The notes: generated by a model not told the origin, from the sequence alone. A DNA stretch of 64,000 nucleotides from a virus (IMGVR_UViG_3300023202_000205:115365-179364); one strand, 5' to 3'. Positions 3,077-57,636 are shown, counted from the first letter of the stretch. Program-made: numbers and translations.

Positions 3077-5725
3077 CTAGCTCTGGTGAGCTATGGTGGT
3101 CTCGTCGAAACCACAGATGGATTCGTGAGCTTCGCGACACGTTGTCGCGTTAGCGTCGACAGGCATGGCGTACACCCGGCCAGTCGAGTTATCTGAGCCA
3201 TACAGATATTGGTCTGCGTGCATGTCCTGAACCAGGATACGGGGAAGACCGTGGTACATGTCCGAGTCAACTAATTTAGTATCGGTATCCCCTAGATATC
3301 GCTCAATCCCGTATCGTTCGATCAATACACGACGCACCTCTGCGTTTACTTCTCCCCCAATCTCTTCGAGGGTTATCAAGTGAGGTTCCATGATCACGTG
3401 TTCTTTCACCCGCACACCATGCCAGTGATATAACGACCACCCGTCCCGCCACCTATGCGAAGGACCTTCCTCACAATGTGCGCGGTTTTGCCTGTCTGTA
3501 AAGACTACCTCGGGGTTTTCACTTACTACACAGAACTTTTCATGAAAACACTGAAAACCACCCTCAGCCGCATCCTCGTAATGTCTCCACTTCTCATACT
3601 CCGGGAGATCCAACCAACCCATCTCCCGGAAAGCTGTGATGAAAGTAATCCAACCGCCCCACGTGCGGCCTCCCTGGTAAACACGGCCCCACTTAGTGGC
3701 ACAGCCAACAGCATTCTTTATAGAAATGCCAGTCCTACAACAGAACAAAGCAACGCCGCATAACACCTGCGAAAGAGTATCCTTTGACCACTTAACCTCT
3801 TTCGCCTTACTCATTTCAGCATACACAGCTTCGCGGGTGGCGTCGCCCACAGCTTCGTGGGTGGCGTCGGACACAGCTCTGAGGGTGGCTTCGTCCACAG
3901 CTCTGTGGGTGGCGTCGGACACAGCTCTGAGGGTGGCGTCGGACACAGCTCTGAGGGTGGCAGCATACACAGCTTCGCGGGTGGCGTCGTCCACAGCTTC
4001 GCGGGTGGCGTCGTGCACAGCTCTGTGGGTGGCGTTGTGCACAGCTCTGAGGGTAGCGTCGGACACAGCTCTGTGGGTGGCTTCGATCACAACATCGCCG
4101 GTGACGGCATACACAGCTTCGCGGGTGGCTTCGTCCACAGCTCTGTGGGTGGCGGCATACACAGCTTCGCGGGTGGCTTCGTGCACAGCTCCGAGGGTGG
4201 CGTCACCCACAGCTTCGCGGGTGACGTCGTCCACAGCTCTGTAGGTGGCTAAGTCCACAGCTTCGCGGGTGGCAGCGAACACAGCTTCGCGGGTGGCGTC
4301 GTCCACAGCTTCGTAGGTGGCGGTGTCCACAGCTTCGTGGGTGGCGTCGTCCACAGCTTCGTGGGTGGCGTCGTCCACAGCTCTGAGGGTGGCGTCGTGC
4401 ACAGCTTTGCGGGTGGCGTCGCTCACAGCTCTGAGGGTGGCGTCGTGCACAGCTTCGAGGGTGGCGTCGTCCACAGCTCTGTAGGTGGCTAAGTCCACAG
4501 CTCTGAGGGTGGCGTTGTGCACAGCTTCATGGGTGGCGTTGTGCACAGCTTCGCCGGTGGCGTCGTTCACAGCTCTGAGGGTGGCGATGTCCACAGCTTC
4601 GAGGGTGGCGTCGTGCACAGCTCTGTAGGTGGCGTTGTGCACAGCTATGCGGGTGGCGTCGTCCACAGCTTCTTGGGTGGCGTCGCCCACAGCTTCGTGG
4701 GTGGCTTCGTGCACAGCTTCGCGGGTGGCGTCGTGCACAGCTCTGTGGGTGGCGTTGTGCACAGCTCTGAGGGTAGCGTCGGACACAGCTCTGTGGGTGG
4801 CGTCGTCCACAGCTCTGCGGGTAGCGTCGGACACAGCTCTGTGGGTGGCGAAGTGCACAGCTCTGAGGGTGGCGTCGTCCACAGCTCTGCGGATGGCGAT
4901 GTGCACAGCTTCGCGGGTGGCGTCGCCCACAGCGTCGGACACAGCTTCGCGGGTGGCGTCGTCCACAGCTCTGTGGGTGGCAGCGAACACAGCTCTGAGG
5001 GTGGCAGCGAACACAGCTTCGCGGGTGGCGGTGTCCACAGCTCCGAGGGTGGCGTCGTCCACAGCTTCGTAGGTGGCGTCGCCCACAGCTTCGTGGGTGG
5101 CGGCATACACAGCTTCGCGGGTGGCTTCGTCCACAGCTCTGTGGGTGGCGGCATACACAGCTTCGCGGGTGGCGTCGGACACAGCTCTGAGGGTGGCGTC
5201 GGACACAGCTCTGAGGGTGGCAGCGAACACAGCTTCGCGGGTGGTGGCGTCCACAGCTTCGTGGATGGCTTCGTGCACAGCTTCGTGGGTGGCGTCGTCC
5301 ACAGCTCTGTAGGTGGCTAAGTCCACAGCTCTGAGGGTGGCGTTGTGCACAGCTTCATGGGTGGCGTTGTGCACAGCTTCGCCGGTGGCGTCGTTCACAG
5401 CTCTGAGGGTGGCGTCGTGCACAGCTTCGAGGGTGGTGTCGTGCACAGCATCGCGGGTGGAAGGCCTCGGCATAGACTTAGAGGACTCCTGCCCCTGACG
5501 ATACCACCACAAGGCAGCCGTACCATAAACCAATGCCATCTGCAGGGGGCTATCAACAATCACTACTTTCGGTTCCGATAGTCCTGCAGATTCGTATAAC
5601 CCTCGAATACCGCTGATAACGCGGTCCCGATCACAACGCTCGGTAGAGCGCGTATGTTCGATCCACTTTTCTGTATGTTTCTTCAGGTTCTCGTAGTCCT
5701 GTTCCGTTAAGTCAAGGTGCAGCAT
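3077..5725 (-). CDS. DUF6745-domain protein with very long 8-aa repeat tract
   Basis: C-terminal HCEEGPSHRWRDGWSLYHWHGVRV...NAEVRRVLIERYG; AAGGAG RBS before ATG 5725 (track start 5803). Confidence 0.75.
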   Translation of the reverse strand: MLHLDLTEQDYENLKKHTEKWIEHTRSTERCDRDRVISGIRGLYESAGLSEPKVVIVDSPLQMALVYGTAALWWYRQGQESSKSMPRPSTRDAVHDTTLEAVHDATLRAVNDATGEAVHNATHEAVHNATLRAVDLATYRAVDDATHEAVHEAIHEAVDATTREAVFAATLRAVSDATLRAVSDATREAVYAATHRAVDEATREAVYAATHEAVGDATYEAVDDATLGAVDTATREAVFAATLRAVFAATHRAVDDATREAVSDAVGDATREAVHIAIRRAVDDATLRAVHFATHRAVSDATRRAVDDATHRAVSDATLRAVHNATHRAVHDATREAVHEATHEAVGDATQEAVDDATRIAVHNATYRAVHDATLEAVDIATLRAVNDATGEAVHNATHEAVHNATLRAVDLATYRAVDDATLEAVHDATLRAVSDATRKAVHDATLRAVDDATHEAVDDATHEAVDTATYEAVDDATREAVFAATREAVDLATYRAVDDVTREAVGDATLGAVHEATREAVYAATHRAVDEATREAVYAVTGDVVIEATHRAVSDATLRAVHNATHRAVHDATREAVDDATREAVYAATLRAVSDATLRAVSDATHRAVDEATLRAVSDATHEAVGDATREAVYAEMSKAKEVKWSKDTLSQVLCGVALFCCRTGISIKNAVGCATKWGRVYQGGRTWGGWITFITAFREMGWLDLPEYEKWRHYEDAAEGGFQCFHEKFCVVSENPEVVFTDRQNRAHCEEGPSHRWRDGWSLYHWHGVRVKEHVIMEPHLITLEEIGGEVNAEVRRVLIERYGIERYLGDTDTKLVDSDMYHGLPRILVQDMHADQYLYGSDNSTGRVYAMPVDANATTCREAHESICGFDETTIAHQS
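3818..5460. repeat. coding minisatellite, 24-bp unit, about 68 copies
   Basis: recurring cacagct....gggtggc every 24 nt; encodes AT(H/L/R/Y)(E/R)AVxx. Confidence 0.97.
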
Positions 5726-14048: not shown

Positions 14049-14109
14049 GTCGCAGATACCAAGCCTCTAATCGGGCATAGCGAGAGGGCTCTTATAACTC
14101 GGCCAAGGG
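14049..14109 (-). CRISPR. solitary CRISPR repeat (33/36, 14049..14084) with leader-proximal segment
   Basis: gtcgcagataccaagcctctaatcgggcatagcgag followed by agggctcttataactcggccaaggg (21/25 match to array-2 leader). Confidence 0.92.
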
Positions 14110-14112
14110 TTC

Positions 14113-14340
14113 CATCAGTCGCTCTATTAGAGCAGTAGAATAGCTCTACCAGGGGCTTCATCGGCTACTCTATTAAAGTAGTAATACGCCTTTACCAGGG
14201 GTCTCGTCAACTATCTTATTAAGGTAGTAAGACAAGCTCCAGGTGGTATGCCAGCCCCCTCTATTAGAGCAGTAAGACGGCTTTCCAGGAGTTACATCTG
14301 TTACTCTGCTAAAGTAATAGGATTACATCACCAGTATTAC
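14113..14340. repeat. five degenerate direct repeats, 45-46-bp period (iteron-like)
   Basis: core ctctattagagcagta at 14122, 14168, 14214, 14259, 14304, each followed by ccag. Confidence 0.8.
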
Positions 14341-32273: not shown

Positions 32274-33362
32274 TTAGTCCATCACTTTATTGATAAGCTT
32301 ATTCATCTCACGCATGCCTAGATCTGCCGCATCCGGCACTGAAACATCTTCGCCATCATTGTGCTTCCTCGCAAGTTCTAGGACCTCCTGAGGCCAACGT
32401 ATAGTGCGTACGTCCTCAAGATGCTTACCGAGAAGGTTCTGTAGCTCCTCTACGTAGACTCTCCCACCGCCTCCCTTTCGGTTATCAGGTACGAACGTAT
32501 CCGCGTCAGTAGCAATGATGGCCACTTTAAACCTCTCGCTGAGTTGCTCTGCTCTGAGGGTGTTAAGCTGTTTCCCGAACATGGCAATACCGGTAGGGCC
32601 GCTGAAGATAGCATTTAAGATGCCTTCTGAAAGCACCGGTATGTCTAGCGGGGATACGCCATGGAGGTTGTAGAACACCTTCACAAACCCAGGAGGTAAG
32701 TACCACCTGGGCTGGGTGTTAGGAGAGATGGCTCTCCCCTGCCAGGCTACCTGCTTACCACTGATATCCCAGATAGGGAATATAATGCGGTACTGAGCAG
32801 GTAGGAAGATCTCGTCTTTGGTGGCTGTCCAGCATGCTCCGTAGACTCGGGTTACATACTCTACGACTTTGTAGCTCGTAAACCCACGGTAGTTGGATAA
32901 CAGGAACTTGATGGCGTCGTGATCCTTAGGTAACTCTGTGAGCGGCACACACCCTTGAGGCATGGGTATAGCGCCTCTCTGTGTTCGCGCGGACACTTTT
33001 CTCTCGAGCTCAGGAATATCATCTGGGAGGTCGATCTCGTAAGCCTTTACCTTCTCCAGCAGTTCCATCCAAAATTCATCGGGCATGCTTTGCTCGCAAG
33101 ACTCGTTATAGCAGTGGATAAGCCCCAGCACCCTGCTTCGGTTGAAGTTGCTTACCCGGTCTAACCACCGGTAACTGATGGATAAACGCTGCTTTTCGTC
33201 ACCACAGAACGGGCAGTCCACATTGTAGGATTCCCCTCGCTCTATTACTTGATTGTGCCCACCAGGTACACGTTCTTCAATTCGCTTAACTCCCTCGTTA
33301 TAGACCTTGAGATAGCCGAATCGCTCCACGAGCGCGGCGTATAGGGGTTCGTTGAGTACCAT
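32274..33362 (-). CDS. DNA primase (Zn finger + TOPRIM)
   Basis: CPFC.D...HCYN..C zinc-binding domain, WQGRAI, LSEGILNAI, ATDAD. Confidence 0.85.
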   Translation of the reverse strand: MVLNEPLYAALVERFGYLKVYNEGVKRIEERVPGGHNQVIERGESYNVDCPFCGDEKQRLSISYRWLDRVSNFNRSRVLGLIHCYNESCEQSMPDEFWMELLEKVKAYEIDLPDDIPELERKVSARTQRGAIPMPQGCVPLTELPKDHDAIKFLLSNYRGFTSYKVVEYVTRVYGACWTATKDEIFLPAQYRIIFPIWDISGKQVAWQGRAISPNTQPRWYLPPGFVKVFYNLHGVSPLDIPVLSEGILNAIFSGPTGIAMFGKQLNTLRAEQLSERFKVAIIATDADTFVPDNRKGGGGRVYVEELQNLLGKHLEDVRTIRWPQEVLELARKHNDGEDVSVPDAADLGMREMNKLINKVMD

Positions 33363-49586: not shown

Positions 49587-49689
49587 GGAGCCTCCTATGT
49601 GTGTCTATTTTTGCATAATTTATACATCCTGTCACAGATATGTTATTCAGTCGGTAGCCGATACCCGGCCTCTATCAGTCAGTCAGTCA

Positions 49690-50273
49690 GCCACAAATAC
49701 CAAGCCTCTGAGCGGGCATAGCGAGAGTGCGCAGCTTCCCGCTTCTCCCCGATCACATCCGGGTCACAGATACCAAGCCTCTGAGCGGGCATAGCGAGAG
49801 GAGGTCTGGCCGGCTTTACCGCGAGATCGTGGTGACGTCACAGATACCAAGCCTCTGAGCGGGCATAGCGGGAGACGCCCTGCATGTTGCTCGTCACAGA
49901 TACCAAGCCTCTGAGCGGGCATAGCGAGTATCAGCGGTTCATAGGCTGATTCCCGTGATGGCGAGTCACAGATACCAAGCCTCTGAGCGGGCATAGCGAG
50001 CGGCGGTAACCTACGCTGGCGTCACAGATACCAAGCCTCTGAGCGGGCATAGCGAGAACAGGATACTGTAGACGACCTCTTTCGTCACCGCTCGGGTCAC
50101 AGATACCAAGCCTCTGAGCGGGCATAGCGAGAAACTGCGGCCGGTGCTGGCAAATGCCCATCCTGTGTCACAGATACCAAGCCTCTGAGCGGGCATAGCG
50201 AGTCCCACCACGCCCGGCAGACCGAGTGCACGCATGCGTCACAGATACCAAGCCTCTGAGCGGGCATAGCGAG
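49690..50273 (-). CRISPR. CRISPR array 1: 9 repeats, 8 spacers
   Basis: 36-bp repeat CTCGCTATGCCCGCTCAGAGGCTTGGTATCTGTGAC (minus) at 49690 (degenerate), 49763, 49837, 49893, 49965, 50021, 50096, 50167, 50238; spacers 37,38,20,36,20,39,35,35. Confidence 0.98.
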
Positions 50274-50445
50274 AGGGCCTTTATAATTCGGTTCATGGAA
50301 CCGTGTTATATCGCTATCCGCGAGAGCCCTCATCTCAGCTGATCCTAGCACCCTTTAGATCACTGCAATATCTCCACCTAAACCATTATCATCAAAGAAC
50401 ATCGAGTGCCTCCCGTAATTTCAGAACCAAGAAGGCGCTCGAAAC
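50274..50445 (-). promoter_or_regulatory. CRISPR leader 1 (172 bp)
   Basis: noncoding, abuts repeat, about 94 percent identical to 57465..57636. Confidence 0.9.
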
Positions 50446-51100: not shown

Positions 51101-52981
51101 TTAGGTGGTAACCTTTTCTGACTTCTTAGACTTCTTGGACTTCTTCGATTTCTTGGACTTCTTGGACTTCTTAGCCTTTTTAGCTTTCTTAGGCTCCTTC
51201 TTCTCTTCCGTACCGTTACTTTTCTTACTTTTTCGAACTTCCCCCTTGCTACGGGCAGCAGAGATGTCCACGCTATCCGTCAGCTGAGTACGGAGCATAA
51301 GTCTCAGCATTTTGCCAGTATTACGACGTTTGATAAACTCGTCAAAATCTTTCTGAGAGAGAAATCGTCGTAACAGGTTCAGCACACGGCTGTAATCCCC
51401 GCTCACCCCACAATCGCAGGGCCTCTCCTTAGTACAGTTGCCGCAGGTTTTTGCGATACCGCAAGGATTGACTTCTACGCAGGTCATAGCCTTTTTAAGT
51501 GTTTCCTCGAGATACGACACCGCCGCCAACCTCCTGTATTGGTCAGATGCCTCATCTCCGGGAGACTTACGCTCCTTGGTTCTGGAATCAGCATACCTGG
51601 CGAAGTCTGTCCAGTGGATATCGGGTATCACCACTGTGTCGTAAGTCCTCGACAACTTGGCCGCGAACTTGCGGTAGAGATCCAAGCGGTGCTCTTGAAT
51701 GTGTAACCGCTGGTTAGACGCATATTCCAGTAAGTGTTTGTCCTGAACCCTCCACTTCTCAGCTGTCACATACGCATGCTTGTCCCCTTTCCATCTGTTG
51801 TCCTTCCACTTCCAGATGACGGCTGCCAGCTGAGCTTCCGACCTCCAGTGGAAAATGGACTTCGTTGCTTCTTGGATCCACTCGGGGCCCTTGCGGAAGA
51901 ACTTGTCGAGTCGTTTACAGGTTTTATTGAACTCTTTGCGCCTGATGGATTGGAGATCTTCTTCATTATCTTTGAAGTTGATGTACTTATTCTCAAGTAG
52001 GAGATGCCCGAAATCACCATCTTCTCCAGCATAGGTTGCGACCCGTATACCGTCGTCCTGAACGGCCCACCCAGGCATTACAGCAACAACTCCGTGTCCT
52101 TTCTCCCGCTTTTCCAAAGCAGACCAGTCGTCGGTAGATAGGACCAGCTGAAGACTCCACTTCAGATTAGTACCCACCTTCTTTCCAACCAGTCGAGCAT
52201 ATTTGACCTGAGCACCGCGCGGGACGTCACGGTGAAGCTTGGTACGGAAGTTCAACCAAACGGGCTCTTTACCCACACTCCCGATCCGTATCCGGCTCAT
52301 ACGCCAACGGTCCCCACTGGTGGGGCACCTTTCGTCGTTTACTTGCAGGAGTCGGCTGATCCGCTTACCGCTACCATCGAAAGCGTCGTAGAAGTTACCC
52401 CCGTTCTGTACCTGTACGGTGATGCTGTCCTCACCGCGATAACGAACGAACTCGGGGGGAGCTCCCGATTTGTCATCTACGCGAGATTGTGAAATCGCGT
52501 TCTTGAGATGCCAGAACAGGCTGCTTTCGTTATAAAGAGCCTTACACTTTTGCCTGAACTCATCCTCGAGCTTACTCTGACACTTCTCCCATTTCTTGGT
52601 AGGGTAGCACTTCTTCTTTTTGAATTCACTGAGTTTCCTATACTTACCATTTCTGAGCTGTTTGGCTTTCTTGATCTGCTCCTTAAGGAGCTTGTCGATC
52701 TCACGCGTCCTCAGTTTGGCACGCTGCTTTCTGGAAAGATCGATGAGGCTATCAACCTCTTTTTCGGCTTCCTCAACGTCTTTTAAGAGGGGGATGATAG
52801 CTGGAAATAGTTGGCGAAGCTTGTCATGGATAGCCGTCCTCCGCTCTCTTTCGATAGCTACAAGACTATTCCTGTAATGGTTCATTTCTCGGAAGATAGC
52901 TATCGCTTCCTCCTCATCTTCTTTAAACAACTTAGCCCCGAATTTATAAACCTTCGAAGGCTTGCTATCTCGCCCAAACAT
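51101..52981 (-). CDS. cas12m: type V-M (V-U1) CRISPR effector Cas12m-like, RuvC-inactivated, Lys-rich C-terminal tail
   Basis: MFG....VYKFG start, RNSLVAIE, LFW, F.RYRG..SITVQ, RIRIGS....PVW...LHR.VP, W.S..QLA...WK, R.DLYR.FAA; RuvC-I VAVMPGW (D to M), RuvC-II VVIPD, RuvC-III GDY...NL; flanked by arrays. Confidence 0.88.
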   Translation of the reverse strand: MFGRDSKPSKVYKFGAKLFKEDEEEAIAIFREMNHYRNSLVAIERERRTAIHDKLRQLFPAIIPLLKDVEEAEKEVDSLIDLSRKQRAKLRTREIDKLLKEQIKKAKQLRNGKYRKLSEFKKKKCYPTKKWEKCQSKLEDEFRQKCKALYNESSLFWHLKNAISQSRVDDKSGAPPEFVRYRGEDSITVQVQNGGNFYDAFDGSGKRISRLLQVNDERCPTSGDRWRMSRIRIGSVGKEPVWLNFRTKLHRDVPRGAQVKYARLVGKKVGTNLKWSLQLVLSTDDWSALEKREKGHGVVAVMPGWAVQDDGIRVATYAGEDGDFGHLLLENKYINFKDNEEDLQSIRRKEFNKTCKRLDKFFRKGPEWIQEATKSIFHWRSEAQLAAVIWKWKDNRWKGDKHAYVTAEKWRVQDKHLLEYASNQRLHIQEHRLDLYRKFAAKLSRTYDTVVIPDIHWTDFARYADSRTKERKSPGDEASDQYRRLAAVSYLEETLKKAMTCVEVNPCGIAKTCGNCTKERPCDCGVSGDYSRVLNLLRRFLSQKDFDEFIKRRNTGKMLRLMLRTQLTDSVDISAARSKGEVRKSKKSNGTEEKKEPKKAKKAKKSKKSKKSKKSKKSKKSEKVTT

Positions 52982-53070
52982 GTTAACTCCTTGGTTGTTA
53001 TTGCTGATTGTGGTTTCATTATCTGGTTGGTCGGTACGACCCCGAACTGGATGCCGTCGTCAACAGATAC

Positions 53071-53106
53071 GTCGCAGATACCAAGCCTCTGAGCGGGCAT
53101 AGCAAG
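53071..53106 (-). CRISPR. solitary CRISPR repeat (34/36) upstream of cas12m
   Basis: gtcgcagataccaagcctctgagcgggcatagcaag, 89 nt before cas12m ATG; partial copy gtcaacagatac at 53059..53070. Confidence 0.92.
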
Positions 53107-53120
53107 GCCACCTGGCCATC

Positions 53121-53153
53121 AAAATAGGGGACGCTGTACCTAACGTCCCCTAT
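53121..53153 (-). terminator. intrinsic terminator
   Basis: ataggggacg-(10 nt)-cgtcccctat stem with U tract on minus strand, after stop of 53173 ORF. Confidence 0.7.
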
Positions 53154-53172: not shown

Positions 53173-53412
53173 CTAACGGCGGCGCAAATCAAACTGCTCA
53201 AGTACTTCAAGCACGACAAGCGCCACCACCTGCAGCAAACCGGCCCATACCCAGACACGAGTGACATCGGTCACGAAAGTGCGGAATAACGGCCATGAGA
53301 TCATGAGAGTCTCGAAGAGAGCCAAGACGAGTACGATCACGATAACGTAGTACAAGACAGCACCACTACGGGTACTGGCGCTGCTTGCCTTCTTTTCCTT
53401 CGAGGGAGGCAT
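53173..53412 (-). CDS. small two-TM membrane protein
   Basis: two hydrophobic segments; GAGGA RBS. Confidence 0.55.
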   Translation of the reverse strand: MPPSKEKKASSASTRSGAVLYYVIVIVLVLALFETLMISWPLFRTFVTDVTRVWVWAGLLQVVALVVLEVLEQFDLRRR

Positions 53413-53499
53413 GAGGCCTTTCCTCACAGCTCATGAAACCGACGGCACCAGCTGAGCATGGTTTGCATCCGACGGGTGTGGCCGTGACGCCACCAGACT

Positions 53500-53515
53500 G
53501 TGTTCGCGTGAACAC
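53500..53515. promoter_or_regulatory. palindromic operator GTGTTC-GCGT-GAACAC
   Basis: intergenic, upstream of 53173..53412 and the cas12m region. Confidence 0.72.
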
Positions 53516-53549
53516 AATCCTTTATCATGAGCTACGTATGCACTAGCGG

Positions 53550-54808: not shown

Positions 54809-56611
54809 ATGGCGGTCGCGGCTCCTACGAAGCTGGAAGAGACACTCAAGGAAGTGCGAAACCGGGCCGTCAAAAATGGTGCTTCGCTTGCTCCAGCACT
54901 TCCCCTCATACTCCAACTGAGGGGGCAGCCCTACTCACTGAACTGGTCTCACTTCATGTTTGAGCCCATGTTCAAGTTTATAGGTATGCCTCGTCGAATG
55001 ATGTTGCTTTGTGGCCGCCAGGTCTCCAAAAGCACCTCGATGGCAGCTAGTCAGATACTCCGGGCAGCTATCCAGCCCAACTACAACATCCTTACCGTAA
55101 TGCCGCTTTACGAGCAGGTTCGCAAATTCAGCCAAAACTATGTGCGCCCTTTCATAACGACGAGTGGGGTAAGGAATCGTCTGGTCAGTGAACTGGGAAC
55201 GGACTCGGTCCTTCAACGGCAGATAGGGCCACTACAACACAACAGTTCCTTGTTCTACAGCTACAGTTCTGGCGACCCCAACCGTGTCCGTGGTATCCCT
55301 GCAGACGAAACCGACTTTGACGAGATCCAGGATTTGGACCACGCTGACCTCCCGATCATTGAATCGTGTATGGGTGCTTCGCGGTTCAAGATTGTTCGAC
55401 TAACGGGAACCCCTAAGACGTTTGACAACACGGCCAACCTGCTCTGGGAAGATAGCTCCCAGGCACATTGGCACATCCCCTGTTGTTGTGGCAAAGAGAA
55501 TAAAGCTGCCGTTGATGGTGATCTAATTCAGATGATCGGAGATGGTGGTAAACGACCGGATGGCTCTGTGCGTACACTGATCTGCGCTAACTGTGGCCGA
55601 GACCTCAATAGCCGCATTGGGTATTATGTCCACGACTACCCAGATCGCCGGTCGATCTTTCCCGGCTATCACGCCCCTCAGCCTATCCTCCCCATGCACT
55701 ATGAGTCGCCGCCGGACTGGCATGTCATCTTGGAAACGATGCATGAGAAGGCGACTTACATCTTCTACAACGAGGTCCTCGGAGAGTCCTATGATGCGGG
55801 CTCAAAGGTCATCACCTACGAGGAGCTGCATAAGGCAGCGCAGGTAACACCTTGTGAGCCGAAGGACATGCTGCCTTCTCGGTACATTGCTACTATGGTC
55901 GGGATCGACTGGGGTGGTCGTGGTAAGGAAAAGACGTCCGATACCGACGACTTTATCTCGAACACCGCCTTTGCCGTAGCAGGAATGCGGTCCGACGGTG
56001 TCATAGAGATACCCTGGCTTCACAAAGTACCCTATGTGGTAGATATGAGCCACGAGTCACATATGGCCGTCAACGTAGCTGCTAGCAGTAGGTCGGACTA
56101 CATCGCGATGGATTATGGCGGTCAGGGAAATGTGCAGGAACAGCAAGTGCGTGCCTGGGGATGGCCAGCGGAACGGGTGGTTCCGTTTACTTACGCGGTG
56201 ATGGCGCCAACACGCCCCGTAGTCTACTACAACCCTCCGAAACACCGTGGTGTCCGATCCAGTTATACACTGGATAAGCCCAGGAGTATCTTGCTCCTAG
56301 CAGAGCTCCTTAAGAGAGGGTTAGTGTTACTCCCCAACTCAGATAAATACCTGAAAGACCACCTGCGTGACTTCCTCAACATCTATGAAGAGAGTATCGA
56401 GAACCCCTCCGGCTCACCTCGTCGACTCATCAAACGGATGAGTCGACGCACTGACGACGTCGTCCACGCAATCAATTTTGCCGTAATGGGCCTCTTCCAT
56501 TACACAAATAGCTGGCCTAAGATCGCCGATTCATTTGTCGAGCAGGCCATCTCGCAGATACCTTCTTCTGTCACAGATACCAAGCCTTTGAGCGGGCATA
56601 GCGCGGGATGA
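54809..56611 (+). CDS. terL: terminase large subunit, GpA-like
   Basis: GRQVSKST Walker A, RVRGI.AD...FDEIQD, GTPKT, CCCG/CANC zinc module, FYNEVLGESY, GIDWG nuclease motif. Confidence 0.85.
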   Translation: MAVAAPTKLEETLKEVRNRAVKNGASLAPALPLILQLRGQPYSLNWSHFMFEPMFKFIGMPRRMMLLCGRQVSKSTSMAASQILRAAIQPNYNILTVMPLYEQVRKFSQNYVRPFITTSGVRNRLVSELGTDSVLQRQIGPLQHNSSLFYSYSSGDPNRVRGIPADETDFDEIQDLDHADLPIIESCMGASRFKIVRLTGTPKTFDNTANLLWEDSSQAHWHIPCCCGKENKAAVDGDLIQMIGDGGKRPDGSVRTLICANCGRDLNSRIGYYVHDYPDRRSIFPGYHAPQPILPMHYESPPDWHVILETMHEKATYIFYNEVLGESYDAGSKVITYEELHKAAQVTPCEPKDMLPSRYIATMVGIDWGGRGKEKTSDTDDFISNTAFAVAGMRSDGVIEIPWLHKVPYVVDMSHESHMAVNVAASSRSDYIAMDYGGQGNVQEQQVRAWGWPAERVVPFTYAVMAPTRPVVYYNPPKHRGVRSSYTLDKPRSILLLAELLKRGLVLLPNSDKYLKDHLRDFLNIYEESIENPSGSPRRLIKRMSRRTDDVVHAINFAVMGLFHYTNSWPKIADSFVEQAISQIPSSVTDTKPLSGHSAG

Positions 56612-57464
56612 TGACGGCCCCTCAGTCACAGATACCAAGCCTCTGAGCGGGCATAGCGAGGCGGCCATGACCCCGAGGAACAGCCGTGGCCCTCCGAGTC
56701 ACAGATACCAAGCCTCTGAGCGGGCATAGCGAGCCGATTGCGATGGGGTGGACCCGGTCTCTTTCGAGTTGTCACAGATACCAAGCCTCTGAGCGGGCAT
56801 AGCGGGGGCCTTGCTACCGGGTTTCCCTTCAGACTACCCTTCGGTCACAGATACCAAGCCTCTGAGCGGGCATAGCGAGACCATAGCCACCTCGGCAAGG
56901 CCCTGGATACCGCCGCGTCACAGATACCAAGCCTCTGAGCGGGCATAGCGAGCGCTTTTGGATCGCCTGGCGTACGCCCTGCTTCTGGTCACAGATACCA
57001 AGCCTCTGAGCGGGCATAGCGAGGGCGCTCTCACACAGCGAGGAGCAGAGCCATGGCCACACTGTCACAGATACCAAGCCTCTGAGCGGGCATAGCGAGT
57101 GCCATCGAATCCCCGGTAGCGGACACCGTTCACTTGCGTCACAGATACCAAGCCTCTGAGCGGGCATAGCGAGACAACTGTTGGCGGCGAGCACGACCGG
57201 ATGCCCAGGGTCACAGATACCAAGCCTCTGAGCGGGCATAGCGGGAGCTCGGCCGCCTCGGATTGGGTCAGTAGATGATCATGTCACAGATACCAAGCCT
57301 CTGAGCGGGCATAGCGAGTTCTCGTCGTCGGTACGCTCGCCACGGAGCGCCGCCGTCACAGATACCAAGCCTCTGAGCGGGCATAGCGAGTGCGACACCT
57401 TTCGCGGCACCGTGGCCAGCGAGATCTAGTCACAGATACCAAGCCTCTGAGCGGGCATAGCGAG
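56570..57464 (-). CRISPR. CRISPR array 2: 13 repeats, 12 spacers
   Basis: repeats at 56570 (degenerate), 56625, 56698, 56771, 56844, 56917, 56988, 57064, 57138, 57210, 57283, 57355, 57429; spacers 19,37,37,37,37,35,40,38,36,37,36,38. Confidence 0.98.
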
Positions 57465-57636
57465 AGGGCCTTTATAACTCGGCTCAGGGAACCGTGTTAT
57501 ATCGCTCTCTGCGAGCGCCCTCATCTCAGCTGATCCTAGCACCTCTTAGATCACTGCAATATCTCCATCTAAACCATTATCAGCAAAGAACATCGAGCGC
57601 CTCCCGTAATTTCAGAACCAAGAAGGCGCTCGAAAC
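57465..57636 (-). promoter_or_regulatory. CRISPR leader 2 (172 bp)
   Basis: 11 mismatches to leader 1 by manual alignment. Confidence 0.9.

Follow-up and report, generated by a model that had tools for sequence, protein, structure and literature searches.

What is a lone CRISPR repeat doing in the leader of a phage cas12m gene? The question arises from a 179-kb uncultured phage, an IMG/VR viral record, whose final 64 kb constitute the stretch of DNA analysed here (hereafter the window; coordinates are window positions unless marked as genome positions). On the minus strand of this window, the order is a palindrome, an open reading frame (ORF) of 84 aa, a hairpin, the repeat, a partial copy of the repeat's 3' handle, cas12m, an ORF of 213 aa and CRISPR array 1. 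CRISPR effectors of types I, II and V-A are known to be autoregulated by repeat-derived RNAs, and in all validated cases that we know of a guide binds promoter DNA. The original prediction took the arrangement for an autoregulatory 5' leader, in which Cas12m would either cut or bind its own mRNA or make a self-repressing guide; the anatomy and the identity of the effector gene hold up in our analysis, and the self-repressing guide does not.

The gene downstream of the repeat (51101..52981, minus strand, ATG at 52981) encodes a 626-aa Cas12m homolog. In a profile search, the PADLOC Cas12u1 model matched along its whole length, at residues 9-539 (E = 9e-71), and the PDB entry 23vw, "Cas12m", matched with E = 2e-40, as did 8hio and 8pm4; like type V-M effectors, the protein is thus a Cas12m/V-U1 homolog of ~600 aa. 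Its N-terminus co-aligns with the N-termini of its homologs, indicating that the start codon is correct. The alignment further shows that the RuvC-I Asp is replaced by Met, a loss common to the two closest relatives (P0001, 43% identity, and P0002, 39%), and the RuvC-II Glu by Pro, so that the RuvC site is predicted to be non-canonical or inactive, as in type V-M. These substitutions do not preclude pre-crRNA processing, since Cas12m processes pre-crRNA within the repeat independently of RuvC (PMC11013384, PMC10442227). Moreover, His250-Arg251 of the phage protein aligns with His269-Arg270 of Cas12m2, which in the solved complex read C(-1) and stabilise a G:A pair at the end of the crRNA handle (PMC10442227); this handle-reading dyad is invariant in our alignment (A1). 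The crRNAs of published Cas12m proteins measure 50-60 nt, the scaffold derived from the repeat being at the 5' side and the guide at the 3' side (PMC11013384, PMC10442227), and published V-M systems have no tracrRNA (PMC11013384). These published effectors bind DNA without cutting it, with T- or C-rich PAMs (PMC11013384, PMC10442227), and Cas12m is a natural DNA-binding repressor (PMC11013384).

Some features of the gene and its surroundings may be recorded here. At the 3' end of cas12m (51113-51184), a 9-nt tandem repeat encodes a Lys-rich tail (KKSKKSKK...); a similar basic tail is present in the closest homolog, P0001, and absent from more distant Cas12m proteins. A single-protein scan returned no close phage relatives, and the repeat core was not found in viral or prokaryotic collections. 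A 2026 preprint that claims the first phage Cas12m describes an intact D-E-D triad and leaves leader repeats unmentioned (10.64898/2026.09.14.751636).

The repeat itself is 36 nt long (53071..53106, minus strand), lies 89 nt before the cas12m ATG and corresponds to a Cas12m crRNA scaffold. It was described as solitary, and it truly is, the nearest other repeats being 2.8 and 3.5 kb away; 34 of its 36 nt are identical to the array repeat (the differences are C3T and T33C), a match for which chance is excluded. It occupies the position of a standalone repeat unit (SRU), outside the arrays, within the cas locus and adjoining cas12m. The same phage was present in all three DNA runs, in which the leader showed no variation.

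The integrity of this copy can be judged against a family set of 69 loci encoding Cas12m relatives and two annotated records. All 24 family repeats are oriented as their cas12m and follow one common design, a 3-bp stem (columns 9-11 with 20-22) and a 6-bp pseudoknot (14-19 with 29-34), in which 95.4% of cells are paired and nine of nine pairs show compensatory change; none of 500 shuffles reached the observed score, and slid controls came to only 29-51%. The scaffold defined by this covariation agrees with the stem-plus-pseudoknot of the Cas12m2 structure, and the phage's own arrays, built of co-oriented 36-nt repeats with stem plus pseudoknot and ending in GAC, have the make-up of type V-M arrays. 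No scaffold pair of the array repeat is lost in the leader repeat, which has the stem 9-11:20-22 and five of the six pseudoknot pairs and likewise keeps G13, A35 and C36. Neither substitution costs a pair: position 3 is outside the scaffold, and position 33 is already unpaired in the array repeats, pair 15:33 being broken both in the arrays (U.U) and in the leader copy (U.C). On the HMM of the family repeats, the leader copy scores 25.9 bits, as against 23.8 for the array copies. C at position 33 is the family-consensus state and is common to the lone copy at genome 129413 and to the repeat fragment after array 2, which suggests that the C33 copies may be older than the arrays' present consensus, yet they show few other changes. 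With only two substitutions to go by, selection on the leader copy is statistically indemonstrable. Two structural ideas were rejected along the way: T33C does not restore a pseudoknot pair, position 15 being U in all copies, and a 5'-3' closing stem of the repeat, obtained by single-sequence folding, has no covariation support, so that a reading of the two leader substitutions as compensatory is withdrawn.

Abutting the repeat, with no spacer between, is the partial 3' handle GTATCTGTTGAC (53059..53070, minus strand), a 12-nt copy of the repeat's final 11 nt into which one T is inserted. The second partial handle that had been predicted is therefore present, and it is non-random (P ~ 2e-4), but it is not special to the cas12m leader: fragments of the repeat's last 9-12 nt lie within ~60 nt downstream of four of nine terminal or solitary repeats, where 0.28 would be expected, and two of these have at most one edit (0.008 expected). 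They follow the leader repeat, array 2, array 1 and the lone copy at genome 105721. The partial handle is thus probably a truncated second repeat or collapsed repeat unit and not a leader-specific device, to judge by its counterparts elsewhere. The fragment sites (window 56551-56561, 49631-49641 and 53059-53070; genome 105692-105700) stand at offsets of 0, 8, 20 and 48 nt, and the part retained is always the 3' part only; such fragments may be biased deletion remnants, or functional at array ends. A hairpin of the partial handle with the downstream CAACCAGATA was considered and discarded, being no better than chance (z = +0.59).

From the partial handle to the ATG, the rest of the 5' leader measures 77 nt (52982..53058, minus strand), close to the ~75 nt predicted, and is A/C-rich near the ribosome-binding site (RBS) AAGGAG (52992..52987). 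Terminator scanning and folding of this segment found no terminator and no significant structure (z = +0.59), and the leader has no match in Rfam.

On the other side of the repeat, the hairpin ends exactly 14 nt ahead of it, also as predicted. This terminator-like element (53121..53151, minus strand; core AGGGGACG / CGUCCCCU, extendable to 15 pairs) begins 22 nt past the stop of the 84-aa ORF and consists of a stem-loop (53151..53126) followed by AUUUU(GA) to 53121. The stem-loop has a folding energy of -21.7 kcal/mol (z = -4.2), equalled by none of 200 shuffles; a consensus terminator scan, which allows loops of up to 8 nt, passed over it, its loop being longer. The 84-aa ORF (53173..53427, minus strand), directly upstream, is hydrophobic by its translated sequence and has no match in Pfam, NCBIfam, PADLOC or PHROG. 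The 14-nt spacer between hairpin and repeat, GATGGCCAGGTGGC (53107..53120, minus strand), carries AGGTGG 7 nt before an AUG inside the repeat (53100); this AUG opens a 66-codon frame (53100..52900) that crosses the cas12m RBS and start in another frame, possibly an upstream ORF that Cas12m binding would block.

Further upstream, the palindrome TGTGTTCACGCGAACACA (53499..53516) is the candidate start of a transcription unit running into cas12m. Copies of this 18-nt palindrome (consensus AGTGTTCGCGCGAACACT) occur ~22 times in the 179 kb, mostly 15-70 nt before gene starts (window 553, 9601, 14970, 24264, 32978, 42227 and 53497, and ~15 more in the genome), making it a candidate phage promoter, operator or unit boundary. 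In a de novo count, nearly all enriched intergenic 8-mers were pieces of this palindrome or of the CRISPR repeat. Since these are the enriched elements and one palindrome precedes the 84-aa ORF, the most economical transcript would run from the palindrome through the small ORF, the hairpin and the repeat into cas12m. The strong hairpin 14 nt upstream could halt most such transcripts before the repeat.

The layout recurs in other type V-M loci. Of 56 distinct upstream windows from other V-M loci, 7 (counting L049, a possible seventh case) have a same-strand scaffold unit at 33-101 nt before cas12m, and none has a match of at least 5 bits on the opposite strand. L032 carries a two-repeat mini-array upstream of cas12m and L031 a decayed version of it at the same position; L005 has three upstream units, whose pseudoknots differ and are each internally complementary; L001 has a lone unit; and in L039 and L057 the terminal repeat of an array is directly upstream of cas12m. 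Apart from those of L031 and L032, which are 83% identical and both retain upstream units, the effectors of these loci are only 27-37% identical to one another, and the layout has therefore arisen or persisted in at least six deep Cas12m lineages. The remaining 49 of the 56 upstream windows, including those of the characterised MsCas12m and of phage Rctr197k, have no upstream repeat. Compared with the loci that do, the unit of our phage likewise places a same-strand scaffold before cas12m, but it is single, has a terminator-like hairpin ahead of it and is farther from the RBS: the RBS is at +79 from the handle here, as against +22 to +28 in L001 and L039, inside a guide-sized footprint. Direct occlusion of translation is thus unlikely in this phage, where 79 nt of unstructured, A/C-rich sequence place the RBS beyond such a footprint. 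In the viral locus L005, the three tandem scaffold-like units (4785-4944) include pseudoknot helices such as GCGCAT/ATGCG and CGGGA/TCCCG, and structure seems to be preserved there while sequence diverges. A structure-only pseudoknot scan was abandoned as unspecific (14 forward versus 12 reverse windows).

We arrive at the hypothesis, to which we give a probability of roughly 45% and which is the best explanation remaining, that Cas12m binds or trims its own mRNA leader. The intact scaffold, the conserved His-Arg dyad and the same-strand recurrence in other lineages lend it indirect support. According to this hypothesis, the 5' leader of the transcript entering cas12m would contain a single complete scaffold of a Cas12m crRNA, which Cas12m would recognise like any repeat of its arrays. 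The protein would bind there, probably cleave just 5' of the scaffold, and remain attached to the 5' end so created, holding the ~20 nt that follow as a pseudo-guide. The fate of the cas12m message would in this way be tied to the amount of Cas12m unoccupied by crRNAs, and a supply of crRNAs would relieve the effect by competition. The upstream hairpin would attenuate read-through from the 84-aa gene and, at the same time, provide a protective 3' end on the upstream fragment. What the sequences show is the anatomy, the integrity of the scaffold, the conserved handle-reading residues and the recurrence in other lineages; we infer the co-transcription of the repeat with cas12m, the binding or cutting by Cas12m and the sign of the effect. 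Negative feedback is the more likely outcome, although the sequence would fit either sign: a message that is cut and then trimmed would become less stable, while one whose 5' end is capped by protein could become more so.

Whether such regulation would stop at cas12m is a further matter, given that the leader copy is one of six lone repeats in the genome, all of which lie 14-90 nt before start codons, on the strand of the gene. Strong hairpins directly precede two of the six. At genome 36523, the repeat is abutted by a hairpin of -27 kcal/mol (z = -6.6) and ends 14 nt before an ATG; because the hairpin abuts the repeat and the ATG follows only 14 nt on, the mRNA there must contain the repeat by read-through, and this hairpin-repeat module is the same as that of the cas12m leader. 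Across the six copies, 5 of 15 substitutions fall at scaffold positions, against ~8 expected, a difference that is not significant. It is possible, though we consider it unlikely, that Cas12m binds six phage mRNAs, its own among them, and regulates or processes them, with the hairpin-repeat modules acting as Cas12m-dependent sites of operon cutting and the crRNA load setting how strongly this small regulon is expressed. Of the two products of such a cut, the upstream one would have a protected 3' end and the downstream one a 5' end capped by Cas12m, and a CRISPR effector would be acting post-transcriptionally, in cis and with no DNA target. Near another of the lone repeats (14049-14084), the sequence at 14100-14340 (minus strand) contains four or five similar short hairpins (…TACTGCTCTAATAGAG…) at ~45-50-nt spacing before the repeat, and one more such hairpin is placed between this repeat and the RBS of its gene.

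The rival that fares best against the binding of Cas12m to its own leader holds that the repeat and its 3' fragment are what remained when a small array or mini-array collapsed through deletion, tolerated between genes but without a role in cas12m expression. Several points agree with such an origin: the abutting 12-nt fragment resembles a truncated second repeat, fragments of this kind stand at four of nine repeat ends, L031 shows the L032 mini-array in decay at the corresponding place, selection on the leader copy cannot be demonstrated, and most V-M loci lack an upstream repeat altogether. We nevertheless find it unlikely, somewhat more so than the six-mRNA regulon, since against it stand the fully intact scaffold with C33, the family consensus shared with the copy at genome 129413 and the array 2 fragment, the placing of all six lone copies at 14-90 nt ahead of a start codon and in the orientation of the gene, and the strand-specific recurrence of the layout in at least six deeply diverged Cas12m lineages.

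A second rival, with a lower probability again, allows the repeat a function but no feedback: the module could be an operon insulator, or the lone repeats could buffer or decoy Cas12m, be it the phage's own or that of a co-occurring genome. Solitary repeat units of viruses are established decoys of Cas proteins (Racrs; PMC10651486), and the present one is likewise a lone viral repeat that could occupy a Cas protein; the strong hairpins directly ahead of two of the six lone repeats would suit an insulator, and a near-identical repeat is carried by a more abundant co-occurring genome, on a contig with ~10 times the phage's depth in the same samples. Racrs, however, mimic host repeats to disarm immunity, whereas the repeat in the cas12m leader is that of the phage's own arrays, so that a decoy would blunt the phage's own system too. 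Unlike Racr genes, moreover, it is flanked by no dedicated promoter or terminator, and no promoter is recognisable at it; and the recurring position right before the effector gene points to the effector gene itself. The contig in question (907 nt, runs X1 and X2) lies outside this phage genome; its repeat shows 3 differences over 36 nt (matched at window 53064-53099) and is followed by the RBS-like AAAGGAGGAGGG.

Less probable still is the self-repressing guide, in which the repeat and the sequence after it would form a crRNA-like RNA that, by partial complementarity, leads Cas12m to its own promoter DNA and represses transcription. Lone or degenerate repeats before cas12a have been validated as acting in this way (10.1101/2023.03.10.532045; 10.1101/2024.10.29.618823); the CreR/Cracr RNA of type V-A has one pseudo-repeat and a terminator, together with a pseudo-spacer that matches, over its first ~10 nt, a PAM-flanked site in the promoter of cas12a. 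Cas12m, for its part, is a natural DNA-binding repressor (PMC11013384), and a true two-repeat mini-array stands upstream of cas12m in L032. The phage leader also shares with CreR, the crlRNA of Cas12a and the viral Cracr a repeat-derived unit next to the effector gene (89 nt before the ATG), and the same outcome would be expected, an effector autoregulated and relieved by competing crRNAs. CreR, however, needs ~10 PAM-proximal matches in the promoter and its own terminator, and the leader has neither: after the repeat, only the 12-nt 3' fragment abuts, with no terminator after the pseudo-guide and no second degenerate repeat beyond a spacer. The first 24 nt after the repeat, taken in either register, have no match of at least 10 nt within 1.3 kb, the best PAM-proximal matches there being 7-8 nt, as expected by chance. 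Across the phage genome, the sole notable match is 18/19 at genome 25778; it covers guide positions 17-35, beginning at position 17 and not at the guide's first bases, and is marginal over 33 queries. The two 20-mers that the original prediction had proposed as queries for partial targets gave 2 and 9 exact matches in 596 Gb of genomes, which were scattered over taxa and extended by at most 2 nt, i.e., chance hits, and none in viral contigs. Nor did L031 or L032 contain a CreR-like target, the sole candidate (an 8-nt seed with TTTG at L031:1311) being inside an ORF and rejected. The other guide targets considered, namely the 18/19 match at genome 25778, a 12-mer at 33118 and 7-8-mers near 53440, were set aside as being at chance level or in the wrong register. 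One self-match speaks for a guide: the pseudo-guide starts with GTATCTGT, which also follows TTG inside every repeat, so that, given a TTN PAM, each of the 33 repeats would offer a leader RNP a seed of 7-8 nt; this is too short to carry weight.

Finally, transcription could begin downstream of the repeat. Scans for sigma-70 promoters found none in the leader and, over 12 kb, fewer than shuffled sequence gave, and with consensus hits below the shuffled expectation the phage appears to use non-sigma-70 promoters. A phage-specific promoter between 53070 and 52982 (e.g., GATAAT, 53023..53018), which would make the repeat silent DNA or the tail of terminated transcripts, agrees with the strong hairpin and U-tract just upstream of the repeat and with an apparently non-sigma-70 phage, in which sequence alone cannot decide, but it has little chance of being correct, as no promoter-like site and no recurrent or enriched intergenic phage motif is found between the repeat and the ATG, GATAAT has by its sequence a poor -35 partner, and the hairpin-repeat module at genome 36523 leaves no room for such a promoter.

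The closest known systems to the leader repeat are the standalone repeats upstream of cas12a and CreR; no description of a V-M equivalent was found in the literature searched. The SRUs of type V-A have been proposed to bind and regulate their cognate effector (10.1101/2023.03.03.530964 / PMC10120712), and they resemble the present unit in being single repeat-like units outside an array, before the gene of a type V effector without tracrRNA, and in having flanking sequence without a conserved targeting pattern. Our unit differs in its subtype (V-M), in residing in a phage and in belonging to a DNA-binding effector that lacks two RuvC residues; moreover, V-A SRUs are near the detection limit, whereas this one is nearly identical to the array repeat, is part of the leader, where no terminator intervenes before cas12m, and has five lone counterparts ahead of other phage genes. 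The tracr-L of Cas9 in type II-A is similar in that a repeat-related RNA ties effector expression to effector availability (10.1101/2024.10.29.618823), but tracr-L guides Cas9 to promoter DNA, while no DNA target was found for the cas12m leader and V-M systems have no tracrRNA (PMC11013384).

In this phage and at several other Cas12m loci, then, the effector's handle precedes its own gene with no detectable DNA target. If Cas12m does bind or trim its own message, CRISPR parts would have been assembled into a loop in which a protein feeds back directly on its own mRNA. Such a loop would be the simplest way to sense how much effector is free relative to the crRNA supply, and a natural counterpart of the Cas6/Csy4 processing modules of synthetic biology. 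Were this to extend to the five further lone repeats before genes, a CRISPR effector would have been recruited for viral gene control. For engineers who use Cas12m as a compact DNA binder, it would also flag a native element of expression control.

The arrays themselves offer a few additional observations. Two lie in the window and a third elsewhere in the genome. Array 1 (49690..50445, minus strand), downstream of cas12m and the 213-aa ORF, has 9 repeats (50273..49690) and a 172-nt leader (50445..50274); array 2 (56570..57636, minus strand) has 13 repeats (57464..56570) and a leader 95% identical to that of array 1. Three spacers (49893-50056 and 56606-56624) measure only 19-20 nt, close to the size of a mature Cas12m guide, as against 35-40 nt for the others. 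Run X3 contains two spacers that are missing from this genome, so that array content varies between samples. An AUG is present in every repeat; right after the terminal repeat of array 1 (49675-49689) comes TGACTGACTGACTGATAG, with stops in all three frames, and the similar TGACACTGACTGACACTGAC (genome 105701-105720) follows the lone repeat at genome 105721. These elements may stop ribosomes that start in repeats. Convergent with array 2 is an ORF for the terminase large subunit (54809..56611, plus strand; PHROG 675, E = 2.5e-49), which at 56525-56611 enters the terminal repeat of the array and its 3'-handle fragment, its last ~29 codons being beyond the profile match. At 3727-5200, ~63 copies of a 24-nt tandem period, ~80% alike, presumably form a repetitive protein-coding region.
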